From contig CAMKQK010000004.1 in the NCBI GenBank assembly GCA_946414915.1, forward strand, positions 1 through 44,013: a DNA stretch of 44,013 nucleotides, given 5' to 3'. The stretch is from an uncultured Bacillales bacterium (lineage in GTDB: Bacteria; Bacillota_I; Bacilli_A; RFN20; CAG-826). The first letter of the stretch is position 1. Every line of letters begins with the position of its first letter. The position numbers were made by a program, and so were the translations under genes. This document shows positions 4,543 through 28,108 of the stretch, one piece after another. The notes under the pieces were generated by a model, which was given only the letters and a program-made list of their open reading frames with translations, ran no database searches and had not been told where the DNA came from.

Positions 4543-7380
4543 TTAAACATTTGCCTTATACATAACAGAGAATACTGAATCGGTTGTTCCAACTGTTAAT
4601 CTCATATCACCTATATCAATATAGCAACTGTTAACGTTCTTTGGATTTTGCGTGAAACCATTAGCCACACAAGCAGCACTAATAGCGGCGCGATATTCAT
4701 TTGTGAAACTGCCGCTTGCTAATTTTACCGCTTTTGTTGTCGCTGTATTGAAGTGAAGAGTAAACTTGCCACTATAGGCAACATCATAGACGTAAGGAAC
4801 TAACGCAGCATTGTCTTCGCCAACCATAGAAATAATTCTGTTGTAGAATTCTGGCAATTCTTCAGCCCAAGTTGTTGGATGTGGAGCTTCTTTTAATGTT
4901 GGTAAAACTTCTAATAATTTTTTCTCAAAAGAACTATTTAAGGTTGTTGAGCCATACATGAAGTTGCTTGTGTATTCTGTAGCAGTTGGAGCACTGTCAT
5001 ACTTGTATGTAATACCAGTGATATGGCCACCACTAACTTTTAAAGTGATTGTATTATCTTGTGCGTATTTGTTATAAGAGAATTCATTGAATAAACCATA
5101 ACCAGCGTTCATAACGCCTTCTTTGAAGACAATGTTGCCATCGACATCAAATGTCATGGTTTCTGGAGCAACATTGAAGCCTAATAAAGAAGCAAATGTT
5201 TGTCCTTCTTCAAGTTCAACGTCGCCTTCAAATCTAGCATTAACTTCACCGCTTTCATCTTTGGCAGAGAATTTGAAAACGCTGCCATCGCTTAATTTGT
5301 GGTAACCATGATATCCATCGAGTTTACTATCCTTGTATTCTTGGACAAGAATTGTATCAGATGTAACCTTGATGTTTTTCCAGTTCTTTGTATTGGCATA
5401 ATCACCCATGAATAGTGTGAAGTTGGCGTCTTTGCCTTGGATTTCATCTAAGTAAGCACCGATTCTTACTGTATCAGCATCTGCTTCAAATGGTTTTGGA
5501 TCTTCGATTTTTTCATATGGTAAAACTTCGATTTCCATGACGAGTTTTCTATAAACATACTCTGGAGTTTCAGCATCTGGATCAGAAATATCCACTAACA
5601 TATTGGCGGTTTCACATGTGAAAGAAGTAATTTTGCCATCTTTTTCGTGAGCGGTAATATAAGCGATTTGATTATCGCCAACACTCGCCCAGGCTAAATT
5701 ACAAGCTACACTATGTGATTGAAATCCTAAGTAGGAATATGCATGTTCGCCAGTTTGTCTAAATTGGTTGGTATCCAAAGTAGCAAATGGGAAAGTGAAT
5801 GAATCCCATTCTCCATAAGAGGTTGTCACAACTTGGTTATCTGGACCAATACCAATGTATTTGGCATCGCCATTATCGTTTGTGTAGAAGTTATGGATTA
5901 TTTGATTGCTTTTAATAACGTTTTTGTCTTCGATTAAATATTTTTCATCGAAGTTATATTCACTAGTACCTAATAATTCTTCATTTTCACCAGTGATTGT
6001 TTTAATTGTGGCTTTAATGTGACCTTCTCTGAGCATGAATGAAGAAGCGACTTCTTCGCTCATGCCTGTACTTCCAACAGTCACTTTGTTAAAAGCATCG
6101 TCCACTACTGGAGCTTTTGTTTGACCGACATTTGTGTAAACTAAATCGCCAAACATGGAAGTAGAAGTATAGTCAATGTTACCATCTAGACCTGCGTATA
6201 AAAGGTTGGCAACTAATTCGTATTTATCATTAAATGAGTATTGGATTGCACTGGCAAAATAAGCTAAGTCTACACCAATAACGTTGGCCATAAAGCCAAT
6301 CAAATCTTCGTTATCTGTGACGAAGTGGCCGTCATGTTCTTCAAATTCCACCTTGTCAATGTCGATGAAGTATAAGCCATCAACGTCATAAAGGTCAGTA
6401 GCGATTACGAGATCATCATCGATGTTATAGACGACATCGTTACCAATGACCAATTCGTCACCCACTAATTTGATATAGTGCGCAACTTTTTCGTATGGTT
6501 GATTTGGAATGATGTTTGTGAATAAACCCATACCTTCATTGAATAAAGTATGGAATGAGTAATTTGGAGTTCTATAGAAATCCGCTGAAGAAACGTTACT
6601 TCTAATTTGTAATGTGTAGTTTTGGCCTTCTTTTAATGTTTTAAGAGCGGCTTTGACTTTAGCTTCTGTTTGAGCGAAAGCAACACTGATGGTGATTGTA
6701 CCATCATTGTAACGACCTTCTTTTGTACCTGTAACAACATAGGTACCTTCTTTACTAGCGGTGAACACACCGTTTTCAATTGTGGCGCCTTCAGTTGTGG
6801 TTAATGTGACACCTTCAACGTTAGAGTTAATGGTGACTGATTCATTTAAATCAAGATTTGTTTTTTCTGCTGTTAAGACGATGTCTTGTTTAGCTTCTAA
6901 AACAGTAATTTCTAATGTGCCATCGATGAAATCGCCATCTTTATGAGCAGTGATAACATAGTTACCATCTTTTGTGGCTTTGAAAACATTGTTTGTAATT
7001 GTAGCGCCTTCGCCTGTTGTGAATGTGACACCTTCAACATTAGAACTAATTAAAACTTCTTCATTAATTTCTAAAGTTGTTTTTGGAGCAGTTAAAGTAA
7101 TTTGTGTTTTAACCACGATACTAGGAGCACTGCTACTGCTGCTAGAAGATGATGATGGGGTTGTACTAGTTGAAGCACTTGAAGATGTGCTAGTTGAAGT
7201 ACTGGATGTTGTGCTTGTTGTAGCACTGGATGATGATGATGTTGTTTCAGAAGTAGTATTGCTAGAGGAATTACTACCTGAAACTTGGCTATCACTGCTG
7301 GTACTTCCTTCACCGAAGCAGCCTGTTAACATAGCGGCTGTGACAATACCAAGCACGATAGATTTGATGCTTTTTTTCAT
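4543..7380 (-). CDS. Large Ser/Thr-rich lipoprotein with two tandem Ig-like (Big_2-like) repeats
   Basis: SD AGGA before ATG 7380; lipobox MLTGC; Ser linker; two ~72-aa repeats containing SNVEGVT..T.EGATI..VF.A.K.G.YV. Confidence 0.8.
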   Translation of the reverse strand: MKKSIKSIVLGIVTAAMLTGCFGEGSTSSDSQVSGSNSSSNTTSETTSSSSSATTSTTSSTSTSTSSSASTSTTPSSSSSSSSSAPSIVVKTQITLTAPKTTLEINEEVLISSNVEGVTFTTGEGATITNNVFKATKDGNYVITAHKDGDFIDGTLEITVLEAKQDIVLTAEKTNLDLNESVTINSNVEGVTLTTTEGATIENGVFTASKEGTYVVTGTKEGRYNDGTITISVAFAQTEAKVKAALKTLKEGQNYTLQIRSNVSSADFYRTPNYSFHTLFNEGMGLFTNIIPNQPYEKVAHYIKLVGDELVIGNDVVYNIDDDLVIATDLYDVDGLYFIDIDKVEFEEHDGHFVTDNEDLIGFMANVIGVDLAYFASAIQYSFNDKYELVANLLYAGLDGNIDYTSTSMFGDLVYTNVGQTKAPVVDDAFNKVTVGSTGMSEEVASSFMLREGHIKATIKTITGENEELLGTSEYNFDEKYLIEDKNVIKSNQIIHNFYTNDNGDAKYIGIGPDNQVVTTSYGEWDSFTFPFATLDTNQFRQTGEHAYSYLGFQSHSVACNLAWASVGDNQIAYITAHEKDGKITSFTCETANMLVDISDPDAETPEYVYRKLVMEIEVLPYEKIEDPKPFEADADTVRIGAYLDEIQGKDANFTLFMGDYANTKNWKNIKVTSDTILVQEYKDSKLDGYHGYHKLSDGSVFKFSAKDESGEVNARFEGDVELEEGQTFASLLGFNVAPETMTFDVDGNIVFKEGVMNAGYGLFNEFSYNKYAQDNTITLKVSGGHITGITYKYDSAPTATEYTSNFMYGSTTLNSSFEKKLLEVLPTLKEAPHPTTWAEELPEFYNRIISMVGEDNAALVPYVYDVAYSGKFTLHFNTATTKAVKLASGSFTNEYRAAISAACVANGFTQNPKNVNSCYIDIGDMRLTVGTTDSVFSVMYKANV

Positions 7381-7537
7381 AGGATTTTTTCCTTTCTTCA
7401 ACAGTTAAAAACCTACTCATTTATTAAAGGTAAATCAAGCATTATTTATAAAATACTTAAATTTTATAATGAATAACAAAAATAGTTGCTAAAACCTTGG
7501 AATTTAAGGATTTTCATGTTATGATGAAATTTAAAAT

Positions 7538-7564
7538 AAAAACAACCAAATAAGGTTGTTTTTT
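7538..7564. terminator. Terminator of the ABC transporter operon
   Basis: AAAAACAACC-AAATAA-GGTTGTTTTT inverted repeat at the ATPase stop. Confidence 0.7.
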
Positions 7565-8345
7565 AATTTCCGCATTCGATTGAGATCTCGTTAAACGTTT
7601 TAAGGAGGTCTTCAATCTTGGTTTTTTCTTTATCTTCACCACTTTTATCGATGACGATTTTGCCTTGATTGAACATCAATAATCGGTCACCATATTCCAC
7701 TGCGTAACGGAGATTATGTGTCACCATCAATGTGGTGATTTTCTTTTCTTGAACGATGCGGTTAGTTAACTGCATTATTGCTTCACTTGTCTTTGGATCA
7801 AGCGCAGCGGTATGTTCATCAAGAAGTAATAAATCAATTGGTTGTAATGTCGCCATTAAAAGGGCTAAAGCTTGTCTTTGACCACCAGAGAGTTTCTTGA
7901 CTTTGGTGTTCATCTTTTCTTCTAAACCTAAGTTTAAAGACTTCAGCATTTCATGGTATCTTTCCACTTTCTTCTTATTTAAAGCAAAAGATAACCCATA
8001 CCCGTGTCCCTTATTTTCCGCTAAAGCAAGGTTTTCAGCGATGGTTAAATTAGGGGCTGTTCCTAAGGAAGGATCTTGATAGACACGACCAATTTTTCTC
8101 GCTCTACTATGTTCCTTTGCTTTAGTGATATTTTCTTCTTTTAAGTAGATTTCGCCGTTATCCAATGGAGCGGAGCCACTGACTAAATTCAGTAATGTTG
8201 TTTTACCAGAACCATTACTACCAACGATGGAGACAAACTCGCCTTCTTTGATATCTAAATTGAAATCAATGAATAAAGGCATTTCATCAATGGTGCCTGT
8301 GTTGAATGTTTTATAAATGTTTTTAAAGGATAGTAAATTAGGCAT
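7563..8345 (-). CDS. ABC transporter ATP-binding subunit (putative tryptophan/aromatic amino acid uptake)
   Basis: Walker A GSNGSGKT, signature LSGGQ, Walker B LLLDEHTAALD. Confidence 0.93.
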   Translation of the reverse strand: MPNLLSFKNIYKTFNTGTIDEMPLFIDFNLDIKEGEFVSIVGSNGSGKTTLLNLVSGSAPLDNGEIYLKEENITKAKEHSRARKIGRVYQDPSLGTAPNLTIAENLALAENKGHGYGLSFALNKKKVERYHEMLKSLNLGLEEKMNTKVKKLSGGQRQALALLMATLQPIDLLLLDEHTAALDPKTSEAIMQLTNRIVQEKKITTLMVTHNLRYAVEYGDRLLMFNQGKIVIDKSGEDKEKTKIEDLLKTFNEISIECGN

Positions 8346-9255
8346 GATTCACTCCTCCTTTTTTATTCTTCTTCTCTTTAGAGAAGACATAAGTGTTTAA
8401 GATTAAGATAATTAAGAATGCTCCCGCCATCACGAGTTTTAAATATAATGTTGGAGCACCTAAAGCAATAATCGCGTTTAATACTGCGGTATAAATAAGG
8501 GCACCAATAATCGCTGCGGTTGTACCTTTAATAACCTTGAGGTTCTTAAAGATTGCTGTACCGATAATGACACTAGCTAAAGCGATAACCACCATGCCTG
8601 TACCAGAAGTATTGTCATAGTAAGTCATGTATTGGCTATAGATAGCGCCCGCTAAAGCTACTAATCCATTAGCGAGACATAAACCAAGAATCTTATAAAA
8701 ACCACTATTGGAGCCTAAGGCAATGCTCATTTGTTCATTGTCCCCGACCGCTCTTAGCATATAGCCGCTTTTAGTCTTAAAGAATAAATCCATTAAGACC
8801 TTAATTAAGATTACGATTACTAACATTATGATGATGTTAGCGACGGCTAGTAATGTGAGGTCGTCACCAAATAATCTGGTGAAAGAGTTATTGAATAATG
8901 TTGTTTTATCACCATATGGAATAAGAACATTACCTTTAGCAATCGCAAAGTTAATGGATAATAAAGCTGTCATCGTGATAATGCCAGAAAGTAAGCCACT
9001 AATCTTAAATTTGACGTGAATAAAGCCAGTAATAAAGCCTGCTAAAGCACCAGCGGCAAATGCCGCAATAATCGCGATAACATATGGACATCCCACTTGA
9101 ATTAAGCTGAAGCAGACAATTCCACCAAGAGGAAAAGAGCTATCAACTGTTAAATCAGGGAAATTTAAAATCTTATAACTGATATAAACGCCTAATGCCA
9201 CGATGGCGTAGCATAGGCCTTGTTGCATGATGGTAAGTAAAACACTGACGAACAT
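8338..9255 (-). CDS. ABC transporter permease (BPD_transp_2 type)
   Basis: Hydrophobic; FPDLTVDSSF and LRAVGDN motifs typical of TrpXYZ-like permeases. Confidence 0.9.
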   Translation of the reverse strand: MFVSVLLTIMQQGLCYAIVALGVYISYKILNFPDLTVDSSFPLGGIVCFSLIQVGCPYVIAIIAAFAAGALAGFITGFIHVKFKISGLLSGIITMTALLSINFAIAKGNVLIPYGDKTTLFNNSFTRLFGDDLTLLAVANIIIMLVIVILIKVLMDLFFKTKSGYMLRAVGDNEQMSIALGSNSGFYKILGLCLANGLVALAGAIYSQYMTYYDNTSGTGMVVIALASVIIGTAIFKNLKVIKGTTAAIIGALIYTAVLNAIIALGAPTLYLKLVMAGAFLIILILNTYVFSKEKKNKKGGVNHA

Positions 9256-9256
9256 A

Positions 9257-10213
9257 TTAGTCCACGTTCTTCATATCCTTCACTTCTGGTAAAGTGATGC
9301 CTAATTGTGTAGCAACTTTAGCAGAGTAGCAGTTAAAACTATCTTCGATTTTGATAGCGATATCATTACTAGCAGTAGCTTCACCTTTTAAGATTTTAGC
9401 CATGATAGCGCCGGTTCTTTCTCCTAATGTCACATAGTCTAAAGAAGCACTGGCTAAGCAACCATTTTTAACTTGATCAATTTCACTACCAAAGACTGGA
9501 ATCTTTTTAGCGTTGGTTTTCGCTAAGATGATTTCTAAAGCACCCACTACTGTGTTATCAGTGAGGTTGGTTAAACAATCGACATTCTTATTTAAAAGAG
9601 TGTCTGTTGCGGTCGGAATCTCACTAGCATTAGTGATGGCTTGTCTGACGATTTCGATATTTAAAGCTTTAGCCTTTTCATCTAATGTTTCAATTTGGCT
9701 TAAGGAATTGGCTTCGCCAAGAGTGTACATAACACCGATTTTATCAACATCTGGAATAAACGACTTGATCAAGGATAATTGGCTATCAAAATCTAATAAG
9801 TCACTAGAACCAGTCACGTTTTTCATTTCAGTTAGGCCCGCTGATTTCGGATCGCTAACTGCACAGTAGACGACTGGGATAGAACCTTTAGCAGCACTAG
9901 CAGCGGCCATCGCACTTGGTGTAGCGATTGCGCCAATAATGCTTGTTCTCTTGCTCACAAAGCTGCTAGCTTGAGCGGCGCTTACTGCGGGATCAAAGTT
10001 ACTATTTTGACGGTCAATAACATAGTTATTAAATTCTTCTTTGAGTTCGTCTTCTAAACCTTTGATCATACCGTTATAGCAGTCATTTAATGATTCATGA
10101 GTGCCAAATTGAATGATACCAATGGTTTTCTTATTTGAGTTACAAGCGGTAAAAGAGAGTGAGCCCGCTAATAAAGCGGCTGACATAAATAATGTTTTAA
10201 ATAGTTTTTTCAT
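9257..10213 (-). CDS. ABC transporter substrate-binding lipoprotein (TrpX-like)
   Basis: Lipobox FTAC; motifs IIQF..HESL, AIATPSA, AVSDP, GEANS, TDNTV; downstream of a Trp T-box. Confidence 0.88.
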   Translation of the reverse strand: MKKLFKTLFMSAALLAGSLSFTACNSNKKTIGIIQFGTHESLNDCYNGMIKGLEDELKEEFNNYVIDRQNSNFDPAVSAAQASSFVSKRTSIIGAIATPSAMAAASAAKGSIPVVYCAVSDPKSAGLTEMKNVTGSSDLLDFDSQLSLIKSFIPDVDKIGVMYTLGEANSLSQIETLDEKAKALNIEIVRQAITNASEIPTATDTLLNKNVDCLTNLTDNTVVGALEIILAKTNAKKIPVFGSEIDQVKNGCLASASLDYVTLGERTGAIMAKILKGEATASNDIAIKIEDSFNCYSAKVATQLGITLPEVKDMKNVD

Positions 10214-10274
10214 TTTATAAATCCTTCTTTCTTAAAAATTGTTCACGAGTAAATAGACATAAGTCCCTATGTCT

Positions 10275-10310
10275 TCACCATCGTAATGTCATCTTTAAGA
10301 AATAAGTCAT
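10275..10310 (-). CDS. Putative Trp leader peptide MTYFLKMTLRW
   Basis: AGGAG SD 6 nt before ATG; last sense codon is TGG, then TGA; lies between the T-box terminator and the binding-protein gene. Confidence 0.65.
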   Translation of the reverse strand: MTYFLKMTLRW

Positions 10311-10325
10311 CTAATTCTCCTATTA

Positions 10326-10550
10326 AACAAAAAAGCTTTTTCCCAAAAGGATAAAAGCTTAAAAATCTTTTACTATGCCACCTTAATGGGTTTCGTGTAC
10401 TAACATACACTATCACATGGTTACGGAGTGATGCCGTCGAGTATTAGTCGCCCTCATTGGTCCATTCGCTTCCAAGCAATTATTCTGTTGCACCAACCCA
10501 GAACTCTCTATAAATTACTTTTGAAAGGTACTATTCCACTTCATCGGTTT
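10326..10550 (-). promoter_or_regulatory. T-box riboswitch, Trp-specific
   Basis: Stem I with AGUA, AGAGA and GGUUGGUG motifs; specifier GAA-UGG-A (UGG at 10464-10462); antiterminator AAGG-UGGCAUA-GUAAAAG...CUUUUAU-CCUU; overlapping terminator with U-tract. Confidence 0.9.
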
Positions 10551-10564
10551 GATATGTATAACTG

Positions 10565-10594
10565 ATTATCTCTACTTTTTATAGGAATTGTCAA
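10565..10594 (-). promoter_or_regulatory. SigA-type promoter of the T-box leader
   Basis: TTGACA-N18-GATAAT. Confidence 0.6.
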
Positions 10595-10606
10595 TATTTT
10601 AATGTT

Positions 10607-11539
10607 TTAGTTTTTATAGTAAAGAGCGTTATCCACTATGACGCTAATAACCATTTCGAGATTCTTAATGTTTATTTTGACATCATATTTGCCTTCTTTT
10701 TTGAAGGTAACTGTATACCATAATTCACATGTTCCTGAGTTTAGGTTAGTCTCAGTGTTATTTGTTTTATCTTTGTTAAAAGTTATTTCATAGGCATCAC
10801 TTTTCTCATAAGTAAGGCAATCGTTAGCGTAATCTGAGTCAAAAGTTAAAACGCCATTAAAAGAATACATTATGAATAAATCATTAGCTCTTTCAGTAGC
10901 GCAGACAAAGCGTTGTTCTTTTGTTTCTTGGTCGCCGACTGCCCACGAACCATTATTAACATTTTTAAAAACGGCACTACAAGAATGAGGATTAAATTCT
11001 TCATCTTTCCACACTAGCTGTGGTCTTTCTTTGTCAGTTAATACTGTCGCAGTTCTTCTATAATTTATGCCTTCCTTATAGGTAGTTGGATTATGCTGAC
11101 CATAAAACTCTTTGATAATTAAATAACCATCTTTTTCTCCTAAATAATAGGATTTGCCATTATCAGGAAGGAAATACTCAAGATAGGCATTTTTCTTAAT
11201 GTCAAAGAAAGCATAACCATGATAATACTGGGATTTATTTAAATAACGAAATTCAGTGCAGAAATCACGTCGTCCATCGCCGTTTACATCAGCGAGATAG
11301 AGAGAATCATAAATCTTAAAAGAACCAATATAAAAATAATCACCATGGCCTTTGACTTCTAAGCCTTCATAATCTTTGGTGTTAATAGTTAAAGATTTAT
11401 TAAAGTCAGGGGCTTCTTCATAGCCATTATAAATACACTCCGCTTCAACTAGTTTACCTTCATGATATTTATTACAAGCAGATAAACAAGGAATCATCGC
11501 GGCAATGGCAACAATTATTTTTAAATAATTCTTTTTCAT
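10607..11539 (-). CDS. Hypothetical lipoprotein
   Basis: MKKNYLKII...LSAC lipobox places the start at 11539; contains DVNGDGRRD. Confidence 0.75.
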   Translation of the reverse strand: MKKNYLKIIVAIAAMIPCLSACNKYHEGKLVEAECIYNGYEEAPDFNKSLTINTKDYEGLEVKGHGDYFYIGSFKIYDSLYLADVNGDGRRDFCTEFRYLNKSQYYHGYAFFDIKKNAYLEYFLPDNGKSYYLGEKDGYLIIKEFYGQHNPTTYKEGINYRRTATVLTDKERPQLVWKDEEFNPHSCSAVFKNVNNGSWAVGDQETKEQRFVCATERANDLFIMYSFNGVLTFDSDYANDCLTYEKSDAYEITFNKDKTNNTETNLNSGTCELWYTVTFKKEGKYDVKINIKNLEMVISVIVDNALYYKN

Positions 11540-11690
11540 AGTTTCTGCCTCTGGATTAAGGTAGCAAAAATACATATTTTTTTCAATAATAATCGAAGAA
11601 ATTTCAACCACTACAAATCATTGCTTAAAATAGTTGTGGTTAACTAGGTCAATAATTGAGTAAAATGATAATGATATAGGGAGAAATACC

Positions 11691-27124: not shown

Positions 27125-28108
27125 ATGGCAGAACGTATTTTAACTGGTATCAAACCAACAGGACAATTAACATTAGGCAATTACATTGCGGTTTTAAAGA
27201 ATTTAAAAAACATGAATGATCGCGGTGAATGTTTCATTTTTATCGCGGATTTACATGCATTAACTCTTCCAATTGATCCTGAAGTATTAAGACAAAATTC
27301 TATCGACTTAGCCGCTTTCTATTTAGCCGCAGGTCTTGATCCAAAGAAGAATGCGTTATTCCTTCAAAGCAGCGTTTCCGCTCACGCAGAATTAAACGCT
27401 ATTATGCAAAACTACTTATACATGGGTGAGTTATCTCGTATGACTCAGTTCAAAGATAAGTCCGCTAAATTAAAAGAAAACGCTATTGGTTTAGGCTTGT
27501 TTGCTTATCCTGTCTTAATGGCGTGCGATATCGTTTTATACGATGCCACTACTATTCCAGTTGGTGAAGACCAAGTTCAACACATTGAATTAACACGTGA
27601 CTTAGTTAACCGTATTAACAATAGATATGGTGAAATCTTAACCATGCCAAAAGCGGAACTCCGTAAGGTTGGTAAAAGAATCATGTCTTTAAGTGATCCA
27701 ACTGTGAAGATGAGTAAATCTGATCCAAAAGGTGACATCTTCTTAAAAGATGAACCAGCGGTCATCCGTAAAAAGATTATGTCCGCGGTTACTGATATGG
27801 GCTGTGAAGTTAAATACGATGAAGAGAATAAACCAGGTATCTCTAACTTATTACAAATCTATTGCTGCATGAAAGACATCTCTATTGAAGAAGCAGAAAA
27901 AAGATTTGAAGGCTATCGTTATGGCGATTTCAAAAAAGCGGTCGCAGACGCAGTCATTGAAGAACTCGAACCGTTCCAAGCTAGATATAGAGAAATCGTC
28001 GCTAATAAGAGTTACGAAGAAGCGCTTAAAGAAGGCGCGGAAAAGGCTAGCAAGATTGCTAATCAAACACTCAAGAGAGTGCAAAAAGCTGTCGGCTTAT
28101 TACAATAA
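27125..28108 (+). CDS. trpS: Tryptophan--tRNA ligase
   Basis: GIKPTGQLTLGNY, YPVLMA.D, VGEDQ, KMSKS. Confidence 0.97.
   Translation: MAERILTGIKPTGQLTLGNYIAVLKNLKNMNDRGECFIFIADLHALTLPIDPEVLRQNSIDLAAFYLAAGLDPKKNALFLQSSVSAHAELNAIMQNYLYMGELSRMTQFKDKSAKLKENAIGLGLFAYPVLMACDIVLYDATTIPVGEDQVQHIELTRDLVNRINNRYGEILTMPKAELRKVGKRIMSLSDPTVKMSKSDPKGDIFLKDEPAVIRKKIMSAVTDMGCEVKYDEENKPGISNLLQIYCCMKDISIEEAEKRFEGYRYGDFKKAVADAVIEELEPFQARYREIVANKSYEEALKEGAEKASKIANQTLKRVQKAVGLLQ

Follow-up and report, generated by a model that had tools for sequence, protein, structure and literature searches.

Between a tryptophan (Trp) T-box and the first gene of a predicted Trp transporter operon, the 44,013-nucleotide (nt) stretch of uncultured Bacillales DNA analysed here (the window) carries on its minus strand a short upstream open reading frame (uORF) whose last two sense codons are CGA and UGG. 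At 25 of 25 readable related loci we found the same arrangement, that is, a Shine-Dalgarno (SD) sequence and an ATG from which an open frame leads to CGA-TGG after 24-33 nt, and comparison of these sequences indicates that the uORF is a conserved coding unit in which conservation is codon-specific. On balance we lean towards the view that the uORF, together with a hairpin that joins it to the start region of the next gene, acts as an ermC-like translational attenuator that reads the supply of Trp-tRNA and forms a tandem with the T-box, an arrangement known from the Bacillus subtilis rtpA operon. The features on which this argument rests, all on the minus strand, are as follows.

10344 to 10553, minus strand: Trp T-box leader (RF00230), with specifier UGG at 10464-10462 and T-box bulge UGGC at 10380-10377
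10326 to 10360, minus strand: T-box terminator, AU-rich hairpin 10360-10333 (-10.6 kcal/mol) followed by UUUUUUGUU, with the U-tract at 10332-10326
10317 to 10321, minus strand: SD of the uORF, AGGAG, six bases 5' of the ATG (sequence reading)
10275 to 10310, minus strand: 11-codon uORF encoding MTYFLKMTLRW, stop codon TGA, conserved at all 25 orthologous loci
10278 to 10283, minus strand: codon pair CGA (10283-10281) UGG (10280-10278), invariant; proposed stall site
10218 to 10313, minus strand: long imperfect hairpin predicted by folding, 5' arm within the uORF, 3' arm extending over the SD of the next gene
10222 to 10227, minus strand: SD of the binding-protein gene, GAAGGA, four of six bases paired in the minimum-energy fold
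9257 to 10213, minus strand: TrpX-like ATP-binding cassette (ABC) substrate-binding lipoprotein, 318 aa, ATG at 10213 (PF04392, 195.8 bits)

The leader frame, its codon pair and the T-box

A preliminary description of this DNA had placed AGGAG-N6-ATG and a frame for MTYFLKMTLRW directly past the T-box terminator, and our reading of the sequence bears this out. The element begins 15 nt past the terminator's U-tract, the frame reads ATG ACT TAT TTC TTA AAG ATG ACA TTA CGA TGG TGA with the stop at 10277-10275, and 47 nt separate that stop from the SD of the binding-protein gene, which starts at 10227. Because the source genome is small and has 36% G+C (1.29 Mb in 103 contigs, 71% complete), we examined the possibility that TGA is read as Trp. 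Release factor 2 (prfB) is present (478 bits, above cut-off), opening TGA lengthens open reading frames (ORFs) no more than opening TAG does, and TGA terminates 57 of 675 long ORFs, from which we conclude that the uORF ends after its Trp codon. On the same grounds we rejected a code 4 reading, under which a 31-codon uORF with two adjacent Trp residues (WW) would end 1 nt before the ATG of the binding-protein gene (hereafter trpX). Coupling to trpX by read-through of the UGA was likewise set aside: only the window and leaders of the L009 type keep the extended frame open, and it closes within 4-12 codons past the UGA in L008, L010, L011 and L071.

The loci compared come from six same-genus genomes with an orthologous operon (79-88% protein identity) and from public genome and metagenome contigs. 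Binding-protein identity in this set runs from 88% down to 62%, with one further locus at 42%, and the records are labelled as rumen or gut metagenome-assembled genomes of Bacilli, Erysipelotrichaceae, Clostridia, Christensenella and Bacillota. The preliminary description had made its proposal depend on conservation of the uORF and its Trp codon in relatives, and both are kept at all 25 loci, which represent 22 distinct uORF nucleotide sequences and 21 peptides and in which the other codons vary freely. An SD-like motif stands 6-10 nt 5' of the uORF ATG in every one of the 25, locus L053 being counted from its third in-frame ATG. Outside the T-box the leaders fall into four types that cannot be aligned with one another.

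Leader type 1: M-x8-[LF]RW-stop, in the genus; two variants continue past W
Leader type 2: ..FRWY.., ..FRWR.. and ..FRWW..
Leader type 3: ..YRWRWRV and ..FRWRKQ
Leader type 4: ..SRWRG..

The uORF had originally been credited with a single Trp codon, which is correct for the window; among relatives the number is one or two, the two being either adjacent (WW) or split by CGA (RWRW). The invariant, rare CGA had been missed. Every Arg codon that immediately precedes TGG in these uORFs is CGA (27/27), the remaining two pre-Trp codons being the first TGG of a WW pair. The 26 other Arg codons in the same uORFs comprise 4 CGA, 12 AGA, 5 CGC, 2 CGT, 2 CGG and 1 AGG, and in the RWRWRV type the third Arg codon is CGC, CGT or CGA while both pre-Trp codons are always CGA. 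In the 675 long ORFs of the genome 2.8% of Arg codons are CGA (0.96 per 1000 codons), and in the binding-protein genes of these loci CGA accounts for 3 of 51 Arg codons. The residue before the Arg is F or Y in 19 of the 22 distinct sequences (encoded by TTT, TTC or TAT), L in two and S in one. Only 2 of 522 CGATGG sites in the genome have an SD and an in-frame ATG 6-13 codons upstream, and the uORF element itself is single-copy, which rules out a repeat or mobile element.

The tRNA complement bears on how this CGA would be read. We found tRNA-Arg with anticodons ACG, CCG, CCT and TCT, together with TadA (173 bits), and did not find the UCG isoacceptor (anticodon TCG) among the 29 tRNAs of the 71% complete assembly; CGA would therefore be read by inosine. 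The I34:A3 pair is described in PMC3711424 as possible but inefficient. We tentatively suggest, while holding it doubtful, that the invariant CGA is a sensitiser, its I:A wobble pair in the P site slowing decoding of UGG in the A site so that a single Trp codon suffices to report on Trp-tRNA. If this is true, the uORF coupled to the T-box would check leaky read-through, and CGA-UGG would be a codon-pair design rule for minimal leader peptides that is undescribed for bacterial attenuators.

The rest of the transcription unit avoids tryptophan. Among the 883 aa of its three transporter proteins there is not one Trp, where the genome's usage would predict 7.2, so that the whole unit has no UGG other than that of the uORF. 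Trp is likewise missing from the binding protein in 24 of 24 orthologues and, except for one Trp in L058, from the permease wherever it is complete.

The T-box itself matches RF00230 at 10553-10344 over the full model (1-219) with E 6.4e-20 and 88.2 bits, below the gathering score of 93, and was for that reason missed by a default scan. Its specifier loop, GAA-UGG-A at 10466-10461 (codon then purine), aligns to the specifier region of the model, and the T-box sequence GGUGGCAUA contains the UGGC bulge. The motif GAAUGGA is kept in six of seven aligned genus leaders (L010 has lost the stretch) and is also present in the wider loci. That the uORF stands in tandem with a Trp T-box, as first described, holds at 19 of 20 scanned orthologous loci, whose leaders score 72.8-93.5 bits against RF00230, with 1 of the 19 reaching the gathering score. 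The one miss is L010 (G009:C6), in which the T-box lacks about 55 nt including the specifier and gives no Rfam match at E 1e-5, and in which the uORF (MIQNLKKEFRW), the hairpin and the gene are all intact; regulation by the uORF alone, decay of the operon or an error of assembly could each account for this. The three remaining T-boxes of the genome precede apparent valS, ileS and alaS genes and run from terminator straight into SD and ATG with no uORF, which marks the insert of about 120 nt as special to the trpX-like leader. No tRNA-Trp was found among the 29 tRNAs of the assembly.

The hairpin and the proposed mechanism

In the fold of 10306-10224 we obtained -24.7 kcal/mol (z -4.95, with 0 of 200 shuffles as good), and with flanks (10325-10200) -27.4 kcal/mol (z -4.28). 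The 5' arm consists of uORF nt 2-20, with its core CUUAAAGAU at 10299-10291; an apical stem-loop occupies 10278-10250, and the core of the 3' arm, AUUUUUAAG, lies at 10239-10231. The hairpin had thus been described correctly, including the end of its 3' arm over the SD. In the genus group the distance from the arm to the CGA is fixed at 7 nt in 14 of 14 sequences, even where ATG and CGA are 24 instead of 27 nt apart, and the uORF bases that extend the helix over the SD vary between species (UUUC plus CUU, UUCUU, or UCC). When the uORF 5' region was paired with trpX positions -32 to +3 and compared with 500 shuffles, the genus group gave z -2.6 to -5.2, L067 gave -1.9, and L042, L043 and L054 gave -3.0 to -3.8. 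The 5' region of L040 and L072 shows no significant pairing with this target; there the arm just past the two Trp codons pairs with the trpX spacer and AUG instead (0.017 of shuffles as good).

From the parts, their conservation and their folding energies we infer a two-stage device in which the uORF is translated, ribosomes stall on it, and the response has the following sign. RNA polymerase passes a T-box terminator when the cognate tRNA, here tRNA-Trp, is uncharged, and the first stage would be this permission to transcribe past the terminator. The second would be a translated mini-gene of 10-11 codons, present on read-through transcripts only, whose 5' half would pair with the sequence that immediately precedes the binding-protein gene's ribosome-binding site and with part of that site. 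Each ribosome on the mini-gene would melt the helix, and the time for which it stays open would be set by the dwell with CGA in the P site and UGG in the A site. The mRNA path through a ribosome covers roughly -15 to +16, and at such a stall the core of the 5' arm (-16 to -8 from the CGA) would sit in the mRNA channel. With charged tRNA-Trp scarce, the ribosome would dwell, the start site would be open and the transporter would be made; with Trp-tRNA plentiful, it would finish at the next codon (UGA) and leave, and the helix would reclose. The inefficient I:A wobble at CGA probably prolongs the pause.

RNA-library contigs from four runs offer a glimpse of the transcript, bearing in mind that their starts, ends and strand are unreadable and that uncovered parts carry no meaning. 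A sheep-gut contig covers 10209-10538 with 0 differences, from the T-box through the uORF to the trpX ATG, and a contig of a second study has a nearly identical span in an L009-like variant. Being contigs, they are weak evidence and show presence at most, and DNA carry-over is possible. Contigs from two or three studies begin or end near 10205-10209 (just inside the trpX start) and 10538-10540 (about 15 nt into the T-box); a stable leader-length RNA is possible, and contigs cannot show ends.

A number of observations weigh against this attenuator. Its hairpin finds support in the folding energies and in conservation within the genus, but hardly any in covariation, which the preliminary description had named as a check: an RNAalifold consensus of 14 genus-group sequences has 16 pairs, of which one is compensatory, that is, changed on both sides. 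The core helix CUUAAARAU/AUUUUUAAG is nearly invariant in the genus, and the remaining pairs are invariant or differ by A-to-G changes that give G.U; since the core hardly varies, structure is inseparable here from sequence conservation. Register shifts between lineages make a single alignment meaningless. With the target narrowed to trpX -22 to +3, pairing at the SD proper is at shuffle level: the genus duplex is no better than shuffles (z +0.3 to -1.6), and only 3 of 23 distinct sequences reach 0.02. Blocking the ribosome footprint in the fold raises SD accessibility in the window only from 0.34 to 0.50, and lowers it in L008 (0.41 to 0.01) and L012 (0.53 to 0.06), where the fold then contains a weak local hairpin. 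Loci outside the genus have a different structure or none: the uORF 5' region shows no significant pairing with the start region (-32 to +3) in L038, L041, L053, L058 and L074, and the SD of L058 is 97% unpaired. Measured against classical leaders, a single Trp codon senses poorly, and any ribosome on the uORF, starved or not, would open the helix. Nine further homologous loci with a Trp T-box carry no such uORF, and L079 (48% identity, Trp T-box) has GGC, not CGA, before UGG. We conclude that the conserved part is the sensor, SD-ATG...CGA-UGG, and that its link to the downstream start is lineage-specific; true occlusion of the SD is only partly supported.

Locus L079 is of interest in its own right. 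At L079:490-573 (plus strand), behind a Trp T-box of 94.4 bits, a 27-codon uORF (MKRGWRKPS...) contains GGC-UGG-CGA, and its stop overlaps the gene start as TAATG. It may be an independent Trp leader that acts by coupling.

Alternative readings and known systems

The uORF could sense Trp-tRNA with an output other than hairpin opening, for instance through a terminating ribosome that occludes the SD, through coupling of termination to reinitiation, or through a stalled ribosome that protects the mRNA. Several loci suit such an output: the distance from uORF stop to trpX ATG is 21 nt in L058, 34 in L012 and 36 in L041, the overlapping TAATG of L079 suits it as well, the hairpin is not conserved across lineages, and the RNA contigs of two studies that end at 10205-10209 weakly hint at a stable leader-length RNA. 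In the window and in 8 of 22 distinct uORFs, however, the stop follows directly on UGG, 47 nt upstream of the SD and too far for occlusion or coupling, and the strong genus hairpin (z -4.95) would be left with no role; we regard this reading as rather unlikely. There is a slim chance that the uORF merely unfolds the transporter start constitutively while the T-box does all Trp sensing and the Trp codon has no regulatory part. Any translating ribosome would melt the 5' arm, sensing by one Trp codon is weak, and the footprint-constrained folds shift SD accessibility little, all as an unfolding device would have it, but such a device leaves unexplained a UGG at 25 of 25 loci, a preceding codon that makes up 2.8% of Arg codons, and operon proteins free of Trp.

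A different sensor has also to be considered, in which [F/Y/L]-R-W would arrest the ribosome as a nascent-peptide motif, by contacts close to the peptidyl-transferase centre and perhaps in response to free Trp, like TnaC, instead of tRNA-Trp supply. Arrest peptides of about 10 residues exist in antibiotic-sensing leaders, and the prevalence of F or Y before the Arg (19 of 22 distinct sequences) would fit. Selection on the peptide would nevertheless allow synonymous Arg codons, yet the pre-Trp CGA is invariant where other Arg codons vary; the hallmarks of TnaC are absent, and on an uptake operon a leader induced by free Trp would work against the T-box, so that we consider peptide arrest improbable. 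Unlikely too, with a very slim chance in our estimate, is that CGAUGG and the hairpin form an RNA-only site for a protein, an RNase or an mRNA stabiliser, the frame being incidental. Every nucleotide of the motif is indeed invariant, wobble base included, UGG is followed by a YGN codon in 27 of 29 cases, and RNA contigs in two studies end just past the hairpin, which is a weak indication. Against such a site, an SD-like motif and an in-frame ATG with no intervening stop lie 24-33 nt upstream at 25 of 25 loci in at least four unrelated leader types, across the genome just 2 of 522 CGATGG sites are arranged in this way, CGAUGG does not pair with any one fixed partner in the predicted folds, and no Rfam family covers the region, where the best matches are at chance level (MIR478, E 4.8; PyrR, E 5.1).

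The translational attenuator that we favour has one close precedent. In the at (rtpA/yczA-ycbK) operon of B. subtilis a Trp T-box is reportedly followed by the leader peptide rtpLP (Chen and Yanofsky 2003, 2004). This peptide is said to have three Trp codons and to place a terminating ribosome over the rtpA SD. Like rtpLP, our uORF is short, has an SD of its own and stands after a Trp T-box terminator and ahead of the regulated gene. It differs from rtpLP so described in having one UGG in the window and one or two in relatives, and in ending 47 nt before the SD instead of covering it, although L058 comes nearer with 21 nt before the ATG. It also differs in the hairpin that links the leader ORF to the start region, in the invariant rare CGA before UGG, and in regulating a transporter instead of anti-TRAP. 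The precedent that the preliminary description had invoked, a Trp T-box combined with a Trp leader peptide, is in print: according to PMC4027176 and PMC10327191, both a T-box and ribosome stalling that depends on tRNA control AT (anti-TRAP) of B. subtilis. The logic proposed here is the same, with a Trp T-box acting on transcription, a short Trp-codon ORF acting on translation of the next gene, and tRNA-Trp charging read twice.

Comparison with other leader systems sharpens the picture. The folds recall those of ermC and cat, in which the leader ORF is the 5' arm, the 3' arm reaches the ribosome-binding site of the next gene, and a late-paused ribosome keeps the hairpin open. The signal for ermC and cat is an antibiotic in the exit tunnel acting with a specific nascent peptide; the signal proposed here is instead the supply of one aminoacyl-tRNA. 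Leaders of the trpL type likewise sense charged tRNA-Trp through ribosome position on a Trp-codon leader peptide. Unlike them, our hairpin is followed by GGAUUUAUAAAAUG with no U-run, the output would be translation initiation, and there is one Trp codon in place of a tandem pair; a simple terminator scan of 10100-10700 flagged 0 sites, and it also left the T-box terminator hairpin itself unflagged. TnaC has as its hallmarks W12, D16 and P24 in 24 residues. The uORF shares with it a short Trp-containing leader peptide, a UGA stop and a tryptophan-related operon, and departs from it in that MTYFLKMTLRW has 11 codons and neither Asp nor Pro. TnaC senses free L-Trp and blocks termination (PMC8429421).

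For the transporter, a close known system is Streptococcus suis trpXYZ, which in the main text of PMC9382623 has a Trp T-box with specifier UGG and bulge UGGC. The two are alike in being an ABC uptake operon with the same binding-protein family, the UGG specifier and the UGGC bulge, and they differ in that the window's binding protein falls below the NCBIfam TrpX cut-off. The terms 'leader peptide', 'uORF' and 'upstream open reading' do not occur in the main text of PMC9382623, its supplementary leader figures lying outside the search. The literature searched, including the text of PMC2494555 and PMC9382623 and with subscription papers and supplements outside its reach, yielded no Trp leader peptide between a Trp T-box and trpX, and the only tandem of T-box and leader-peptide sensing of tRNA charging in the searchable literature was the B. 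subtilis anti-TRAP operon.

The principle of combining a T-box with a leader peptide is therefore already known from one operon, and what is new is a distinctive codon-pair signature. If our reading is true, this would be a second, independent and fairly widespread tandem case, on an uptake system found where trpB was not. Its leader is minimal, with one Trp codon, and carries a testable signature, since CGA-UGG occurs in every lineage while other Arg codons of the uORF drift. It would offer a natural system for studying how a single hungry codon gates translation initiation and how P-site I:A wobble tunes A-site decoding in bacteria. Such short leader ORFs could escape annotation, and T-box regulons may hide more of them.

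The operon, its genome and the wider family

By sequence reading, the promoter, T-box, uORF, binding protein, permease and ATPase form one minus-strand transcription unit, of which the remaining features are as follows.

10565 to 10594, minus strand: sigma-70-type promoter, TTGACA (10594-10589), 18-nt spacer, GATAAT (10570-10565); consensus scan, 11 of 12 matches
8338 to 9255, minus strand: ABC permease, 305 aa (PF02653)
7563 to 8345, minus strand: ABC ATPase, 260 aa (PF00005)

Both promoter hexamers are retained in seven aligned genus orthologues. The sole NCBIfam match of the binding protein is NF041285 (ABC_SBP_TrpX) at 202.1 bits, below the cut-off of 390, which is why we call it TrpX-like; no protein in the 301 Bacilli genomes searched reaches that cut-off. 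The Trp assignment rests instead on the T-box specifier, from which we infer that the transporter is specific for Trp. The distribution of trpB fits an uptake system that serves as the cell's Trp supply: among the genus genomes (G000-G022), trpB was not found in exactly the seven that bear the operon, two of which are 92% and 94% complete, and it scores above cut-off in 15 of the remaining 16, which have only distant binding-protein paralogues (about 35% identity). The operon-bearing genomes are kin and may form one clade, so that this pattern counts as one observation and not seven.

The operon is flanked on the minus strand by a 334-aa protein that has a lipoprotein-type signal sequence and matches no Pfam family (10607-11611) and by a 952-aa ORF with no significant family match (4543-7401). 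The gene trpS lies 17 kb away within the window (27128-28099, plus strand). Its region shows no T-box at gathering score, and a whole-genome RF00230 search (E 0.01) gave only the trpX leader on contig C4.

In a wider survey we took the 30 best PF04392/NF041285 loci among 301 Bacilli genomes, 10 of which carry 13 T-box matches. None of the T-box-bearing loci among these 30 has a CGA-UGG uORF. Read by eye as GAA-NNN-A, the specifiers are mostly Phe or Tyr; one match is an adjacent alaS leader and two are UGG (L105 and L115). In L115 (G238:C12) an SD-ATG frame with one Trp codon (..HAWQK..) lies past the Trp T-box terminator and crosses the binding-protein start out of frame, and it could be chance or another variant. 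Paralogous PF04392 genes stand behind T-boxes with by-eye specifiers TTC (Phe) or TAC (Tyr) in L092, L098, L100, L106, L107, L109 and L113, sometimes two in tandem operons and all with no uORF; the members of PF04392 look like importers of aromatic amino acids, divided up by T-box specifier. Directly 5' of PF04392 genes in L089, L099 and L108 we found matches of 59-76 bits to the Rfam family 'Enterococcus sRNA 2410' (RF02863), and this 'sRNA' may be a cis leader of PF04392 transporters.

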